Assembly (NCBI GenBank): GCA_965243835.1
Contig: OZ251578.1
Location: 1,760,303-1,824,302, forward strand
DNA from: Candidatus Spongiisociaceae bacterium
GTDB lineage: Bacteria > Actinomycetota > Acidimicrobiia > Spongiisociales > Spongiisociaceae
Reading direction: 5' to 3'
DNA length: 64,000 nucleotides
Positions 52,099 to 64,000 of this stretch are shown here, in pieces. The first letter of the stretch is position 1; each line of letters starts with the position of its first letter. Under the pieces are notes generated by a model that did not search any database, was not told the origin of the DNA, and worked only from the letters and a program-made list of their open reading frames with translations. The position numbers and the translations under genes were made by a program.

Positions 52099-52839
52099 CT
52101 ACCGCGAGCGCGGCATTTCGTTGTATGTCTCACCGTGCAGTATGCGGCCGCCGGATTTGGGGGTGCGGCCGCCCCATTGTTTGAAGAAAAAAGGGATCCG
52201 GGAATCGGCGCATTGTTCGCGTAGGTCGATCGCCCATTCGGGTTGCATTGGACGGGCTCCCGGGCCGCTTTCGCCGCCCACTATCATCCAATGCACTCCG
52301 CTCAAATCCAGGTTCGGCAGGGGTCCGAGCAAGGGTTCGGCGCTTACGAACCTGATGGCAGCGTCCACCTCGCGCAGATGGTCGATCCTGAACTTGTAGC
52401 GGGCGGTTTCCACGCTTACCCCCATCCACAGGTTGGGCGGCCACTCCAGCGCTTGTCCGAAGCGGGCCAGTCGGCGGGAACGTTTAGTGAGCAACTGGTA
52501 CTGGTGCCGGGGAGTGTCGGCGATCACATCAAACACGCGGCGAATGAACTCGTCGGGCACATCCTTGTGGAACAAGTCGCTCATCGAGTCCACGAAAATG
52601 GTGCGCGGCTTGCGCCAAGAGCGGGGAATATCCAAGGCCTTGGGATGCAAGGTCATCCCGAAACCCGGCCCGCTGGTGCGAGGGTCGCCGTCCCGGCGAT
52701 ACTTCTCCACTCCCATCGCCTGCAACCGCTTCGCCAACGTGAGCGCGTAGCAGTTGTCGCACCCCGGCGAAGTGCGATCGCACCCGGTGGTCGGATTCCA
52801 GGTGGCCCCGGTCCACTCGATCGCGGTCTTGTCAGACAT
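52099..52839 (-). CDS. phage Gp37/Gp68 family protein (DUF5131, three-Cys motif)
   Basis: N-terminal AIEWTGATWNPTTGCDRTSPGCDNCYA pattern characteristic of PF07505-type proteins (recalled from memory). Confidence 0.6.
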   Translation of the reverse strand: MSDKTAIEWTGATWNPTTGCDRTSPGCDNCYALTLAKRLQAMGVEKYRRDGDPRTSGPGFGMTLHPKALDIPRSWRKPRTIFVDSMSDLFHKDVPDEFIRRVFDVIADTPRHQYQLLTKRSRRLARFGQALEWPPNLWMGVSVETARYKFRIDHLREVDAAIRFVSAEPLLGPLPNLDLSGVHWMIVGGESGPGARPMQPEWAIDLREQCADSRIPFFFKQWGGRTPKSGGRILHGETYNEMPRSR

Positions 52840-52842
52840 CGG

Positions 52843-53565
52843 CTATTCCTCCTCGTTTCCGCGGCGAGCGCCCTCTGTCCGCCGGTTGTCCCGGGCCGGC
52901 GAATGTTCGCCGTCGGCTTCCAAACCCCACGCGTGCCATCCGTCAGCGCGGCGTCGGGCGAACAGCTCGATTTTCTTCGATTCGGGAAACATCCGCTCGA
53001 TGCGCTTGCGCACCTCCGCCGGTTTCTCCGAATGCGGACCCCGTTTGGCGCTCAGGAACTGCCGTACGTTGCGCGCCCCGCGCGGGTGCGGTATTTTGCC
53101 GCGCTTGAAAACCAGGCACAGCTCGCACTGGCTCATCGTGTAGAAGCCGGGGTTGACCCGCACCTTGTCCCACACGAAAGCGACCGTCGCCCATGCGAAG
53201 CCCCACGATTTGCCCAAATCAATGGCCTGATCCAGGTGAGGGTTGGTGGCCCACATAAACAGCAGGCAGTCGTCGGCCGCTATGTCGGGCACGGACAGAT
53301 CCTTCAGGTGGTCGAGAGTAACGGTCGGGTAATGCCGCATCGCCCCGCCCGTATCCCGGCTCCCCGCCCCGGCGTGCTGCAACTGCCCCTTGTAGTCCCA
53401 AGGCGGGTCGGCGTAGATGATGTCAAACCGGCCTTGCGGCAGTTCGGGGAAGTCGCCGGAAACTCCGTTCCAGAGATGGTCGAACGCGGCGCGCGTCAAC
53501 CGCCCGGGCTCCGCTTCCGCCGACGGACGAGCCAAATTTCCCGTTACGGCCATCTTGCTCCTCAC
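52843..53565 (-). CDS. MT-A70-family N6-adenine methyltransferase
   Basis: Catalytic motif IIYADPPWDY (DPPW), MT-A70-type fold order; 4-nt gap to the DUF5131 gene. Confidence 0.7.
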   Translation of the reverse strand: MRSKMAVTGNLARPSAEAEPGRLTRAAFDHLWNGVSGDFPELPQGRFDIIYADPPWDYKGQLQHAGAGSRDTGGAMRHYPTVTLDHLKDLSVPDIAADDCLLFMWATNPHLDQAIDLGKSWGFAWATVAFVWDKVRVNPGFYTMSQCELCLVFKRGKIPHPRGARNVRQFLSAKRGPHSEKPAEVRKRIERMFPESKKIELFARRRADGWHAWGLEADGEHSPARDNRRTEGARRGNEEE

Positions 53566-53642: not shown

Positions 53643-54686
53643 TCAGGCGGTGGCGGGTTGGGGGGTTTCCGCCCCGGCCGGCGCCTCGGAATCGGGTTCC
53701 GGCGGGGGGTTGACCGCGGCCAGCACCATGTCCTGGAGTTGCACGGCCACCTCCGGGTTCTCCCGCAGGAAAGCCTTGGCCTTCTCCCGTCCCTGGCCCA
53801 GCTGATCCCCGTCGAACGTGTACCAGGCCCCGCTCTTTTTCACGATGCCCTCGTCCACCGCCACGTCCAGCAGGCTCCCCTCCCGGGAGATGCCCTTGCC
53901 GAACATAATGTCGAACTCGGCCGTCCGGAATGGGGGTGCCACCTTGTTCTTCACCACCCGGGCACGCACCCGGTTGCCGATCTGCACGCCGCCGTCCTTG
54001 ATGGCCTCGATGCGGCGCACGTCGATCCGCACGCTGGAATAGAACTTGAGGGCGCGACCGCCGGGCGTCACCTCCGGCGACCCGTACACCACCCCGATCT
54101 TCTCCCGCAGTTGGTTGATGAAGATGGCGGTGGTGGACGACCGGTTGATCCCGGCCGTCAACTTGCGCAGGGCCTGCGACATCAGCCGGGCCTGCAAGCC
54201 GACATGGGTATCCCCCATCTCCCCTTCGATCTCGGCCCGGGGCACCAGGGCGGCCACCGAATCCACCACCACCACGTCCAGGGCGTTGGAACGCACCAGG
54301 ATGTCGGCGATTTCCAGGGCCTGCTCCCCGGTGTCGGGCTGGGACAGCAACAGTTCGTCGGTGTTCACCCCCAGCGCCTGCGCGTACACCGGGTCCAGGG
54401 CGTGTTCGGCGTCCACGAAGGCGGCTTGCCCGCCGTTGCGTTGCGCCTCGGCCACCACATGCAGGGCGAGGGTCGTCTTGCCGCTGGACTCCGGGCCGTA
54501 CATCTCCACCACCCGTCCCCGGGGCACCCCCCCGATCCCCAGGGCGATGTCCAGAGCCAGGGCCCCGGTGGGGATGTGCTCGATCCGCAGGTGGGTCCCC
54601 TCGCCCAGCCGCATGATGGCCCCCTTGCCGAACTGCCGTTCGATCTGGGTCATGGCCGTGTCAAGGGCCTGATTTTTTTGCTTCAT
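53643..54686 (-). CDS. recA: recombinase RecA
   Basis: Canonical RecA sequence (GPESSGKTT Walker [14 protein letters not shown]1/L2 loops); start at MKQKNQ (54686). Confidence 0.95.
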
Positions 54687-60019: not shown

Positions 60020-60088
60020 GGCCCCAATCTACCCTTTGGCGGGACCGCGCCGTCGGAAAACGTCACTTGGCCCCGCTACAATGGCCGT

Positions 60089-60367
60089 ATGAACCGTGCA
60101 ACCGATGCCAAACCGATGACGGTAGGCGACCTGGTGCGGGAACTGTCCCGCTACCCGGACGACCTGCGCGTAATGGTGAGCGGCTACGAGGACGGCTTCG
60201 ACGACTTGGAGCCCGGCCTGCTCTCCGTGCGGGACGTAGCCCTCGATCGACACCCGGAGTGGTTCTACGGCCGACACGACACCCCCCTCCCGGAAGACGC
60301 GGAGGACGTCGCGACCGTGCCCGCCCTTCTCATCCACCGCCCCAACAAAACAGACGACCTGCCATGA
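60089..60367 (+). CDS. small hypothetical protein (92 aa) translationally coupled to the downstream AAA_21 ATPase
   Basis: ATG at 60089; stop TGA overlaps next ATG (ATGA at 60364-60367). Confidence 0.45.
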   Translation: MNRATDAKPMTVGDLVRELSRYPDDLRVMVSGYEDGFDDLEPGLLSVRDVALDRHPEWFYGRHDTPLPEDAEDVATVPALLIHRPNKTDDLP

Positions 60368-61551
60368 CCTTCCTCCGCAAGGTCCGTCTGGAAAACCTGC
60401 TTTCCTTCGGCCCCGCCGGCCAGGAACTGGATCTGGGCCCGCTGAACGTGCTGATCGGCCGCAACGGCTCCGGCAAATCCAACCTGCCCGCCGCCCTGGG
60501 CATATTGGCCGCCGCCCCGCGCAACCTGCCGACGCCCATCCGCGCCGCAGGGGGAACGAGCGAATGGCTTTGGAAAGGGGCCGACCAGCCGCCCGTTGCG
60601 ACCGTGGAGGCGACGGTTGAGTACCCGGAGGGCGCTTCCCCCCTCATATATCGACTTTCTTTCACCGCCAAAGGGCACCGGTTCACTTTGGTAGACGAAG
60701 CCATCGAAAACGCCAACCCGTCCTCCGGCGAAAGCTCGCCTTCCTTCTATTATCGTTATCAGGGAGGCCAACCGATTTTGAACGTAAGAACCGAAGAAGG
60801 GTTTTGGCGGGAAAAAACCGTTGACCCTGAATATATGAACAGCGAAACCTCGGTCCTTCGCAATTATATAGACCCCTTACATTACCCGCAAATAACATAT
60901 CTAGGTGAACGGTTTCCAAAAATACTCATATACCCACAGTGGAGCTTTAGTCATTACTCGCCGCCTCGTCAACCCGCCTCAACTGACTCGCTTCCCTATG
61001 TATTGCTAGATGATGCTTCGAACCTCGCTTTGGTGATGAACAACTTGCTTAATAAGCCTACAATTCGAAGGGAAATACTTGAGAAAGTCAGGAATTTTGA
61101 TCCTGACATTGAAGACATTGTAACCAATGTCGATGGTCGCAGTGTACAGATATATACTCATGAAAAAGGTTTAAACCATCCAATATCGGCTATGCATTTT
61201 GGGGATGGGCTCCTCCAATACTTATGCCTGTTGGCTGTCCTTTATAAACCTGAATCTCCGCCTCTTATCTGTCTTTCCGAACCGGAATCCAACCTGCACC
61301 CAGATATAATACCGGATGTAGCAAAACTTCTGTTAGAGGCTTCCTCACGAAGCCAAATTATCATAACCACTCAATCCGATATTATGGTAGATGCCCTAAC
61401 GGAAACACCCGAATCCATAGTGGTATGTGAAAAATACGATAACTGCACCCAACTACATCGCCTGAGTAGAGAACAGTTGCAACCTTGGCTAGATGAATAC
61501 AGACTAGGTGATTTGTGGATATCCGGTCAAATAGGCGGCAACCGATGGTGA
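60364..61551 (+). CDS. ABC-type AAA_21-family ATPase (abortive-infection/defense-type ATPase, about 395 aa)
   Basis: Walker [10 protein letters not shown], signature-like [15 protein letters not shown], Walker [14 protein letters not shown]; AT-rich 3' two-thirds. Confidence 0.7.
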
Positions 61552-63121
61552 CCACCGGAAAGGAAACAGCAGTTCAAGGGGCTACGACTGGGTATGAGGC
61601 TGAGCTGTGGAAGATGGCGGACAGTCTGCGGGGGAGCATGGACGCCGCCGAGTACAAGCATGTGGTGTTGGGGCTGATCTTTCTCAAGTATGTTTCGGAC
61701 GCGTTCGAGGAACTACACGAACATCTGCAGGGAGTACCCGACGCCGACCCGGAGGACCCGGAGGAATACGTCGCCGAGAGTGTGTTCTGGGTGCCGAGCG
61801 AAGCGCGGTGGGGGCTCTTGCAAGCCGAGGCCAAGCAACCCGACATCGGGCAACTGGTAGATGAAGCGATGGACGCCATCGAACGGGACAACCCCGCCCT
61901 CAAGGATGTGTTGCCCAAAGAGTACGCCCGGCCCGCTTTGGACAAAACACGACTCGGCCAGCTGATTGACCTAATCAGCAACGTCAAAGTGGGCGACGCG
62001 GAGTCGCGTTCCAAGGATGTGCTGGGACGGGTCTACGAATATTTTCTGGCGCAGTTCGCCGGGGCGGAAGGCAAACGGGGCGGCGAGTTCTACACTCCGC
62101 GGTGCGTGGTGAAACTGCTGGTGGAAATGCTGGAACCCTACAACGGCCGAGTGTACGACCCGTGTTGTGGCTCATCGGGAATGTTCGTGCAGTCCATGGA
62201 GTTCATCCGCTCGCACGCCACCGGCAACGGGAACGGCGGCCTGGCGGGCGACATTTCCATCTTCGGTCAAGAGTCCAACTACACAACTTGGCGGATGGCG
62301 AAGATGAACCTGGCCATCCGGGGCATCAACGGCCAGATCGAAATCGGCGACACTTTCCACGATGACCGCCACCCCGACCTGAAAGCCGACTTCATCCTGG
62401 CCAACCCCCCGTTCAACATTTCCGACTGGGGCGGCGAACGACTGACCGACGATCAACGCTGGAAATACGGCATCCCACCCAAAAGCAACGCCAACTTCGC
62501 TTGGATGCAACACATAGTCCATCACTTGTCTCCGGGGGGGGGGGTGGGATCGTGCTTGCCAACGGGTCAATGTCGTCCCAGCAGTCCAACGAAGGCGAGA
62601 TACGCAAAAATCTGCTAGAGGCCGATTTGGTGGACTGTATGGTGGCCCTGCCTGGCCAGCTGTTCTACTCCACCCAGATCCCCGCCTGCCTCTGGTTCCT
62701 GTCCCGCAACCGAGGTAACGGACCGTTTCGAGACCGCCGCGGCGAGGTGCTTTTCATAGACGCCCGCCGAATGGGCGTAATGCGAGACCGCACCCATCGC
62801 GAACTTACCAATGATGAGATAAGTCGCATCACCAACACCTACCATGCCTGGCGCGGCGAGACAGACGCAGACGAATTTGCCAATATCCCAGGCTTCTGCT
62901 ATAGTGTACCCATAGAGGAGTTACGCAAACACGATTACGTGTTAACTCCTAGTCGCTACGTAGGAGTGGAGCCTGAAGAGGAGGAGGACGAGCCTTTCGA
63001 AGAAAAAATGACCCGACTAATCAGGCAATGGAATTATCAAACAAGCAAGGCCTTAGATACTAACAAGAAAATCACCAATAACTTAAAAAAGGTAGGATTT
63101 ACCACTGTAAGGGAACTCTAA
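61545..63121 (+). pseudogene. hsdM: type I restriction-modification methyltransferase subunit HsdM, split by a frameshift at a G11 homopolymer (phase-variable or disrupted)
   Basis: Upstream frame carries the HsdM N-domain ([26 protein letters not shown]) and catalytic NPPF. Downstream frame carries [11 protein letters not shown]...[14 protein letters not shown]. The frames switch inside GGGGGGGGGGG at 62534-62544. Confidence 0.8.
62534..62544 (+). repeat. G11 homopolymeric tract inside hsdM (currently out of frame; G12 or G9 would restore the ORF)
   Basis: Direct count of 11 G; reading-frame analysis of the flanking HsdM motifs. Confidence 0.9.
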
Positions 63122-63122
63122 A

Positions 63123-63743
63123 ATGGAATGGATATCTATGATTACTTCTTCTCTCATCGCGCTGTCCATCGCAGCTATTACTTGGTTTTTAGTATCTAGT
63201 ATCGAAAAATCTAGAAGAGAGCGGGAGCGATTGCAAGATGAACGGAGGAATCTCTATATGCATATTCTAGAGCCTTATATTATTATATTTGATAATATAA
63301 ATGAACAAACTTCAGATAATGAAATGGACCAACAAACTGGAATACGAACCGAGCTACAAGAATCACTCGATATGATAATATCAACAAATTATCGCAGAAA
63401 AGCCTTTGAACTTGTTCTAATAGGATCTGATAAAACTATTTTATTTTATAATAAACTAATAGAAATAGGACACGCTCTAGACAATAATCGTAATTCTATA
63501 CAAAATATAAGCGAAACAATCGTCATCAAATTTGGCGAATTGCTTTTATCGATAAGAAAAGATTTAGTAGGCAAAAGAACTAAACTAAACGAAATAGAAA
63601 TATTGAAAGGACACATAAAAGATATTAATATTCATATAGAAATATATAAGAAAAAATGGTCTATAATATACAAGATGCTTAGAAAACCTTCCTACGTATT
63701 AAGACCCAGAAAAATAGTTAATGAAAACGAAAGAAACAAATGA
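63123..63743 (+). CDS. hypothetical AT-rich protein (206 aa, N-terminal TM helix) inserted between hsdM and hsdS
   Basis: Very low GC, Lys/Ile/Asn-rich; start 2 nt after the hsdM stop; stop overlaps the hsdS start (ATGA at 63740-63743). Confidence 0.5.
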   Translation: MEWISMITSSLIALSIAAITWFLVSSIEKSRRERERLQDERRNLYMHILEPYIIIFDNINEQTSDNEMDQQTGIRTELQESLDMIISTNYRRKAFELVLIGSDKTILFYNKLIEIGHALDNNRNSIQNISETIVIKFGELLLSIRKDLVGKRTKLNEIEILKGHIKDINIHIEIYKKKWSIIYKMLRKPSYVLRPRKIVNENERNK

Positions 63744-64000
63744 AAAAATACATGAAGCAAGCCACTTTAGGTAGCATAGCACCATTCACTTATGGTAAAG
63801 GCTTACTCAAATCTAAGAGAAACCACTTCGGTAGGGTACCGGTATATGGTTCAAATGGTATCATCGATTATCATGATACGCCGCTAACAGATGGACCCAC
63901 AATTATAATAGGTCGCAAAGGTACTGTAGGAGCTGTGCATTTTTCTCGTATCCCTTGCTGGCCAATTGACACAACATTTTACATAACAAGCTCAGATATT
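63740..64000 (+). CDS. hsdS: type I restriction-modification specificity subunit HsdS, N-terminal part (continues beyond window)
   Basis: N-terminal TRD-like sequence (GRVPVYGSNGIIDYHDTPLTDGPTIIIGRKGTVGAVHF..WPIDTTFYI) typical of HsdS. Confidence 0.7.
   Translation, partial: MKKYMKQATLGSIAPFTYGKGLLKSKRNHFGRVPVYGSNGIIDYHDTPLTDGPTIIIGRKGTVGAVHFSRIPCWPIDTTFYITSSDI

Follow-up and report, generated by a model that had tools for sequence, protein, structure and literature searches.

What is a gene pair for an ATPase and a very small protein doing at the head of a type I restriction-modification (R-M) operon, and does it guard the R-M system to which it is joined? The question arises from a stretch of 64,000 nucleotides (nt) of Candidatus Spongiisociaceae bacterium (NCBI GenBank assembly GCA_965243835.1, contig OZ251578.1, positions 1,760,303 to 1,824,302 of the forward strand), hereafter called the window, in which three genes follow one another on the forward strand: a gene for a small acidic protein of 92 amino acids (aa) (60089..60367, from ATG 60089 to TGA 60365–60367), a gene for an ATP-binding cassette (ABC) ATPase of the HEC-01A (AAA_21) type of 395 aa (60364..61551, from ATG 60364 to TGA 61549–61551), and hsdM, which encodes the type I methyltransferase (61545..63121). 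The original prediction for this locus described an ATGA overlap between the first two genes and an overlap of the ATPase stop with the hsdM start; the coordinates of the former are exact, and the latter reads cgATGGTGA, an overlap of 7 nt with the hsdM ATG at 61545. That a defense-associated AAA_21 ABC ATPase is joined to a type I R-M locus is likewise borne out by Pfam matches to AAA_21 and to HsdM_N and N6_Mtase, and none of the three genes is a chance open reading frame (ORF). Because the R-M genes fill a slot that normally holds a nuclease partner, the locus is best described as a rare, lineage-specific remodelling of a known defense module, and not as a new system.

The ATPase and the gene slot at its stop codon

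A search of PADLOC-DB assigned the ATPase to the HEC-01A subfamily PDLC04177 (E 9.6e-146, model positions 3–393 of 393), and Pfam AAA_21 was matched over the full model (E 1.9e-26); more than 7000 homologues were found. Weaker PADLOC matches included AriA (E 5.8e-26 and 1.2e-11), AbiLi (E 5e-18) and mad3 (E 7.6e-15), among others. An AlphaFold (AF2) model built with 71 sequences has a predicted local distance difference test score (pLDDT) of 90 and a predicted template modelling score (pTM) of 0.90, and its best neighbors in the PDB by Foldseek are PtuA of Septu/retron Ec78, which ranks first, SMC heads, Thermus OLD and Rad50, at E 1e-11 to 1e-9; the model and these neighbors together confirm the ABC fold.

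The catalytic motifs were compared in an alignment of the window ATPase with its 120 best homologues (121 sequences), in which the Walker A lysine is invariant and the signature serine, the Walker-B acidic residue, the catalytic glutamate and the H-loop histidine read S/E/E/H in 115 of the 121 sequences. The window ATPase carries S280G, E305S and H337Q and keeps the catalytic E306. Deviation at the signature, Walker-B and H-loop positions is confined to six sequences of the window clade, which have G or A in the signature, S or A in Walker B and Q or Y in the H-loop; the ATPase of one related locus (P0265, of L106) has, in addition, Q in place of the catalytic glutamate. Both Walker motifs had originally been claimed: Walker A is indeed present at aa 32–40 with K38 kept, but the stretch read as Walker B, at aa 301–313, is degenerate, with a serine where 115 of the 121 sequences have a glutamate before the catalytic one. 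In ABC ATPases, the signature serine, the Walker-B acidic residue and the H-loop histidine mediate ATP-dependent head engagement and hydrolysis. Given these roles, the window ATPase would be a nucleotide binder with impaired hydrolysis, predicted to hydrolyse poorly, if at all. The gene is nevertheless under purifying selection, with a ratio of nonsynonymous to synonymous substitution rates (dN/dS) of 0.15–0.23 among the window and the related loci L001, L002 and L102, and of 0.23 against L104 at dS 0.81, and the protein is full length in all six lineages of the clade. As a separate observation, the third-position G+C content of the ATPase gene drops from about 0.86 to about 0.36 at 300–450 nt into the gene, and the same step is seen in the ATPase genes of L102, L104 and L106, to 60% protein identity, despite saturated synonymous sites.

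What normally follows such an ATPase gene is seen in 12 distant relatives from Acidobacteriota, Armatimonadota, Chloroflexota and Desulfobacterales, whose ATPases are 40–49% identical to that of the window (60% over one truncated match). A gene of approximately 205 aa, whose product begins ...YVEGGGD, lies directly downstream of the ATPase gene in all eight of the intact, evaluable distant loci, and its product belongs to DUF4276 (Pfam, E 1e-18 to 1e-24), that is, to HEC-01B PDLC04201 (PADLOC, E 1e-66 to 1e-84). With three such partners as queries, tblastn found no DUF4276 gene anywhere in the 64 kb of the window (best E 0.45), nor in L001, L002 and L102–L106, the close relatives, and the PADLOC HEC-01B models match neither the small ORF, nor the two hsdM halves, nor a 206-aa ORF located farther downstream. 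The ATPases with degenerate motifs are those of the same lineages that lack DUF4276.

The junction at the ATPase stop codon was compared in 14 loci. Most ATPases of the family end in ...GGNRW immediately before the stop, and in most distant loci the start codon of the partner lies at or inside this stop (directly after it in L007). Thus, the junction reads AGATGGTAA in L006, where the downstream DUF4276 protein begins MVKIRIYVEGGGD, and TTGGTGACC in L003, where it begins VTVKLYVEGGGD. In the window, the ATGGTGA junction occupies 61545..61551 on the forward strand, with the downstream start codon within the final ATPase codons; the window, L102 and the remnant in L104 read CGATGGTGA/TAA at this point, and the downstream hsdM product begins MVTTGKE or MVTTRKE. 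The junction of L001 and L002 is CGATGGTAA, followed by a gene for a 379-aa protein that begins MVKPKPLLF. The nucleotide homology between the window and these two loci (93% and 89%) ends at 61549, which marks the ATPase stop codon as a fixed slot with an exchanged downstream gene. DUF4276, hsdM or the 379-aa gene starts at the same point, and effectors have been replaced at a fixed junction. The 379-aa protein contains a region resembling PD-T7-5 and PD-T7-1 (E 1.5e-9), which are listed as PD-(D/E)xK nuclease systems (PMC10952713). Its family is found together with the small gene and the ATPase gene in two layouts: it fills the slot at L001:4320-5459 and L002:1803-2687, and at L106:1-400 the C-terminus of a homologue precedes the small gene.

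The gene order of the relatives tells the constant part of the locus from the replaceable one. L102 (ATPase identity 87%) has the small gene, the ATPase gene, an hsdM gene that is also frameshifted, hsdS, hsdR and a DUF1828 gene. L001 (89%) has the small gene, the ATPase gene and the 379-aa gene, with a 73-bp fragment of hsdM retained. L104 (72%) has the ATPase gene, a 91-aa hsdM remnant, a 207-aa homologue of the 206-aa ORF and the first ~110 nt of hsdS; the remnant joins the first 14 aa of HsdM to its C-terminus across an internal deletion, and hsdS and hsdR have been lost. L106 (60%) has the C-terminus of a 379-aa family member, a small gene (87 aa), a gap of 35 nt, the ATPase gene and a DUF1828 gene. 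Together with the hsdM fragments in L001 and L104, these arrangements indicate that the link to hsdM is ancestral to the group of the window, L001, L102 and L104. The ATPase is the constant element of the locus and the R-M genes are its replaceable part. An ATPase embedded in a type I R-M locus is thereby turned around and was rejected as a description: the R-M operon sits in the partner slot of the ATPase, which is conserved while the R-M genes are exchanged. The clade comprises about 18 member sequences in five clusters at 90% identity, and the arrangement of a small gene with a degenerate ATPase is rare and confined to one uncultured high-GC lineage.

These arrangements bear directly on the opening question. 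In its full form, the guard account holds that the small protein and the ATPase are an autonomous two-gene abortive-infection module of PARIS/PrrC kind that protects the type I R-M system, is fired by an anti-restriction protein and uses the small protein as effector or antitoxin. The translational coupling of the genes at the head of the hsd operon fits this account, as do the relationship of the ATPase to AriA and AbiLi at the level of hidden Markov models (HMMs), the retention of the pair down to 60% ATPase identity and the age of the hsdM link, of which the L104 remnant still shows the initial MVTT. Yet the small gene and the ATPase gene persist in L001 and L002, where the R-M genes have been replaced, and in L106, whose 5-kb contig shows no R-M gene, and the ATPase alone persists in L104, where the R-M genes have decayed and the small gene has been lost; the unit is therefore not specifically an R-M guard. 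The residues needed for an ATP-driven switch are those replaced in the signature, Walker-B and H-loop motifs, so that a PARIS/PrrC-type switch is a poor fit, and the canonical effector, DUF4276, is absent. The proposal of a conserved pair thus holds, to 60% ATPase identity, and that of a guard dedicated to R-M does not; we consider the guard account as a whole unlikely.

The small acidic protein and the age of the pair

An exhaustive phmmer search with the small protein returned 533 cluster representatives at E<=1e-3, mostly of 70–85 aa, and nearly all of them align from Met10 of the window protein (ATG 60116); the conserved core is hence of 83 aa, and the first nine codons form a clade-specific leader. 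The family consensus is MTVxELIxxLxxYPxDLRVxVxGYExGYDD...WxYGxH, and all invariant residues, GYExG and YGxH included, are kept in the window protein. The small gene has a dN/dS of 0.44–0.65 among close relatives and of 0.57 against L102 and L106, below the 0.76–1.04 of off-frame controls. The possibility that the small ORF is a chance frame is excluded by these homologues and ratios: it is coding, and under only moderate constraint.

The original statement that the small protein resembles no known partner also stands, as Pfam, NCBIfam and PADLOC gave no match, and a Pfam scan of all 106 family members gave scattered chance matches only. Its AF2 model (pLDDT 85) consists of one helix and four strands, for which Foldseek found no significant fold match in the PDB or BFVD, and a profile search against PDB sequences returned nothing. 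With no nuclease, pore or enzyme signature either, the 83-aa protein is a poor candidate for the effector that the guard account calls for. The family is acidic (median isoelectric point, pI, 4.5), and the core of the window protein has a pI of 4.33 with 19 acidic and 8 basic residues, a net charge of -11.

Members of the family often occur in phage contigs and next to toxin genes. They are common in IMG/VR contigs, with 104 confirmed loci from one pattern, and they weakly match PHROG families of unknown function (phrog_7217 at E 5e-4). No relative of the ATPase was found within 4 kb of 80 viral small-protein loci by phmmer with a single sequence and by the family HMM, nor beside family members in three long bacterial contexts and three short contigs, and no homologue of the small protein was found beside the 12 distant ATPase loci. 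The closest homologues outside the clade (L099, L100 and L101) directly follow PIN/VapC and HepT toxin genes, and one family member lies near a PIN pair. HicB-like or TacA-like antitoxin N-termini precede the small domain in a few fusion proteins, and P0146 is a tandem duplication (these unusual members are P0040, P0079 and P0146). These contexts hint at a link of the family with toxin-antitoxin loci, and they are what favors the account in which the small protein acts like an antitoxin or a regulator, controlling the operon or neutralising a neighboring toxin, with the ATPase simply the next gene. However, gene calling may have produced the fusions artificially, as in P0040 the small domain still starts with its own methionine, and no toxin gene adjoins the small gene in the window. 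DNA binding is unlikely for so acidic a protein (pI 4.3, net -11) with no helix-turn-helix or ribbon-helix-helix signature, and we regard a regulatory role of this kind as very improbable. The family, which is large (533 cluster representatives) and outside Pfam, may reasonably be considered for an anti-defense or antitoxin-like function.

Within the clade, the pairing with the ATPase is kept down to an ATPase identity of 60%, in L106. The small gene of L106 and its upstream region show nucleotide homology to window positions 60077–60213, starting at 60077, and since this homology reaches into the shared upstream region, we rejected a separate gain of the small gene by L106; on this homology, the pair is judged to be ancestral to the clade. 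The same region begins with a TACAAT element (60077..60082, forward strand), read from the sequence 6 nt upstream of the small-ORF ATG, that is aligned in L001, L002 and L102 and corresponds to TATAAT at the same position in L104. It is a putative -10 box and may be the promoter, possibly of a leaderless transcript; a consensus scan reported no full -35/-10 promoter upstream of the small ORF. On the forward strand, no terminator-like site lies at the junction of the small gene with the ATPase gene or of the ATPase gene with hsdM, and this supports a single operon of the three genes. The sole forward-strand match before hsdM, at 60727–60740, falls within the ATPase gene, and such matches are overall at chance level.

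L104 shows how the small gene can be lost. It lacks 251 nt that match window positions 60117–60367 (at L104:10064-10100), so that its nine leader codons (MDNATGPEP, versus MNRATDAKP in the window) are fused in frame to codon 2 of the ATPase, and a protein of the resulting length, 403 aa, is called in four of the six members of the 90% cluster to which the L104 ATPase belongs. Because the outgroup L106 has the small gene, this loss is secondary, a near-precise deletion, and because L104 kept the ATPase, the small protein is dispensable at least there. In the window, ATGAC repeats (60116–60120 and 60364–60368) lie at both ends of the 83-codon core, and the small gene thus resembles a cassette set into the 5′-end of the ATPase gene.

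Such a cassette can also be read as debris, namely as an unrelated, promiscuous gene of phages or islands that was inserted into the 5′-end of an orphan HEC-01A gene drifting to inactivity, in which case the overlaps would be by-products and the two proteins would have no joint function. The missing partner and the three lost catalytic motifs agree with this reading, and decay and turnover are visible across the island in the hsdM frameshift, the hsdM deletion with loss of hsdS and hsdR in L104, and the replacement in L001; the small family moreover occurs in many unrelated contexts, and the microrepeats flank just the core that is near-precisely lacking in L104. Against this, the ATPase has remained full length in six lineages at a dN/dS of 0.15–0.23 out to dS 0.8, its Walker A motif and fold core are intact, and the substitutions fall at the same three positions throughout the clade and are not scattered damage. 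The small protein, for its part, retains every invariant residue of its family. Taken together, the debris account appears doubtful.

A proposed remodelled module in a variable island

The explanation that we prefer starts from the position of the locus. The left flank, with recA, a ligT-like gene, cinA, rimO and a GAPDH-like gene, is common to the relatives, and ftsK lies at the right in L102 and L104; the locus would then be the head of a variable chromosomal defense island, situated in relatives between the rimO/GAPDH-like genes and ftsK. The constant element of this island would be a derivative of the candidate system HEC-01, an ABC ATPase with a DUF4276/TOPRIM nuclease in a PARIS/OLD-like architecture. 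The TOPRIM partner has been lost in the clade, and the translationally coupled slot has been refilled: the window has a whole type I R-M operon there, and sister lineages have a PD-(D/E)xK-like protein. The ATPase has kept its P-loop while losing the signature serine, the Walker-B acidic residue and the H-loop histidine, and a small acidic protein from a phage- and toxin-island-associated family is encoded directly upstream in the same operon. By analogy with Ocr, which is bound by AriA, the ATPase may bind a protein ligand, most obviously the small acidic protein, and it may modulate, or merely accompany, the effector plugged in downstream. In short, the ATPase would have shifted from a hydrolysing, nuclease-controlling switch to a nucleotide-binding sensor or scaffold, with the small acidic protein as its likely ligand, a conclusion that we hold to be about evenly balanced between right and wrong. 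The loss of hydrolysis, a physical interaction of the small protein with the ATPase and any defense phenotype are all presumed in it.

Several observations count against this explanation. The dN/dS of about 0.5 of the small protein indicates weak constraint, its family has no ATPase association in any other context examined, and L104 kept the ATPase after losing the small gene. Motif degeneration and partner loss would also be expected from early decay. Furthermore, in the study of Payne et al. (bioRxiv 10.1101/2024.01.29.577857), HEC-01 gave no protection from any phage tested, and as this is the only test reported, the defense role of the parent system is unproven.

A bolder version of the sensor explanation may be sketched, in which the small acidic protein and a hydrolysis-dead ATPase form a two-part sensor head. 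Here, a domesticated protein of a phage family, possibly a DNA mimic or anti-defense protein, would act as the built-in ligand, or bait, of a PARIS-like, binding-only ATPase; the stop codon would be an exchangeable effector socket for a TOPRIM protein, a PD-(D/E)xK protein or a type I R-M operon; and the ATPase would gate or license the R-M system in the window. We think that this version is quite improbable.

If the sensor explanation is true, a two-gene defense module of an ATPase and a nuclease can be remodelled by loss of the nuclease and refilling of the slot with unrelated effectors, even with a complete R-M operon, and its ATPase can turn into a non-hydrolysing binder that gains a small acidic partner from a family of phages and toxin-antitoxin islands. 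Its practical reach is limited, as this is a rare variant in one lineage, of a parent system with no demonstrated phenotype.

The R-M genes that fill the slot in the window are themselves in an unusual state. hsdM is split into two frames (61545–62618 and 62501–63121), the first matching HsdM_N and N6_Mtase of Pfam and the second the remainder of N6_Mtase, and it matches the PADLOC model MTase_I at E 1e-148. A homopolymer of 11 G lies at the frameshift (62534..62544, forward strand); G9, G12 or G15 would be needed for a continuous frame, and L102, which is 90% identical, has G13 (L102:12171-12183). The 5′-part of hsdM has a dN/dS of 0.031 at dS 0.30 between the window and L102, and the poly-G looks like a phase-variable homopolymer switch or a homopolymer assembly error rather than the mark of a dead gene. 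The 5′-part of hsdS (63740..64000, forward strand) runs past the end of the window, and its fragment of 86 aa matches Pfam Methylase_S at E 3.8e-4; hsdR would lie outside the window, and in L102 the next genes of the operon are those for HsdS (452 aa) and HsdR (1037 aa).

Between hsdM and hsdS lies the 206-aa ORF (63123..63743, forward strand), which is overlapped by hsdS through ATGA, is AT-rich (GC 26–36%) and encodes an N-terminal hydrophobic helix. It has a weak PADLOC match to AbiN (E 1e-3) and belongs to no family of Pfam or NCBIfam. Its homologue in L104, beside the decayed R-M genes, is 76% identical with a dN/dS of 0.35, and L102 has no such ORF; it is a candidate for an R-M-embedded defense gene.

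The GC content across the region is a mosaic, with approximately 68–70% in the host, approximately 60% in hsdM and approximately 28% in the 206-aa ORF. DUF1828 genes occur downstream of the unit at L102:17815-18582, after hsdR, and at L106:2400-3182, 340 nt after the ATPase gene; the two copies are dissimilar by eye. Genes for an MT-A70 methyltransferase (52906–53547) and a DUF5131 protein (52111–52857) lie on the reverse strand of the window just downstream of recA (53646–54686), and likewise in L102, and in L104 a MunI-like restriction enzyme gene lies between the two. This site beside recA appears to be a second small variable spot of R-M type.

Comparison with known defense systems

PARIS, which has been linked to the sensing of anti-restriction and consists of AriA and the DUF4435 TOPRIM protein AriB, shares with the window an ABC ATPase of AAA_15/21 type, and the window ATPase matches the PADLOC AriA models. 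AriA binds the acidic protein Ocr in a manner dependent on ATP binding, and its K39A mutant fails to bind (PMC11464382); the window ATPase is, comparably, co-encoded with a highly acidic protein. Unlike PARIS, however, the window lacks a TOPRIM effector and its ATPase has degenerate catalytic motifs, and the acidic protein is host-encoded and co-transcribed and is not a phage trigger. Membership in PARIS was rejected, with no AriB match in the region and an AriA match (E 5.8e-26) far weaker than that to HEC-01A.

In the AbiL/RloA-RloB modules, represented by the rlo genes of Campylobacter and the lactococcal AbiLi/AbiLii, an RloB/TOPRIM-like second gene accompanies the ATPase between the hsd genes. 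The window resembles them in that an AAA_21 ATPase, here with an AbiLi match, is physically joined to hsd genes, and differs in that the ATPase gene precedes hsdM and no RloB-like gene is present in the locus, on which membership fails. MADS comprises the MAD2 methyltransferase, the MAD3 ATPase and the DUF4276 protein MAD4, and DUF4276 has been named as a Mad4 homologue (PMC12065111). The window ATPase also adjoins an N6-adenine methyltransferase, but the NCBIfam scores are far below the cut-offs (60.8 bits for MAD3, E 1.3e-16, versus 420; 39 bits for MAD2 versus 720), HsdM is an ordinary type I methyltransferase, and neither MAD4 nor other mad genes are present; MADS was thus also rejected. 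As for HEC-02 and Septu-type pairs, a layout of an ATPase followed by a PD-(D/E)xK-like protein exists in L001 and L002 and not in the window, and PtuA is the top structural neighbor of the window ATPase, which by sequence, however, is related to HEC-01A and not to HEC-02A or PtuA (NCBIfam PtuA, E 0.012).

The closest system is HEC-01 (Hma-embedded candidate 01) of PADLOC-DB v2, described as an ABC ATPase with a TOPRIM protein (Payne et al., bioRxiv 10.1101/2024.01.29.577857). The original prediction considered a possibly new pairing outside the named systems, which does not hold for the ATPase, given its PADLOC match to HEC-01A, and does hold for the pair, given the absence of its HEC-01B partner. 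The window differs from HEC-01 in lacking HEC-01B/DUF4276, in the replacement of three motif residues, in its extra small upstream gene and in the presence of hsdM in the slot; judged by sequence, the ATPase is a member of HEC-01A, and the locus is not a HEC-01 system, since the second gene that defines one was sought and is missing. What the two have in common is an ATPase of the ABC fold that matches HEC-01A over its full length, and a downstream gene that starts inside the ATPase stop codon, just as HEC-01B does.

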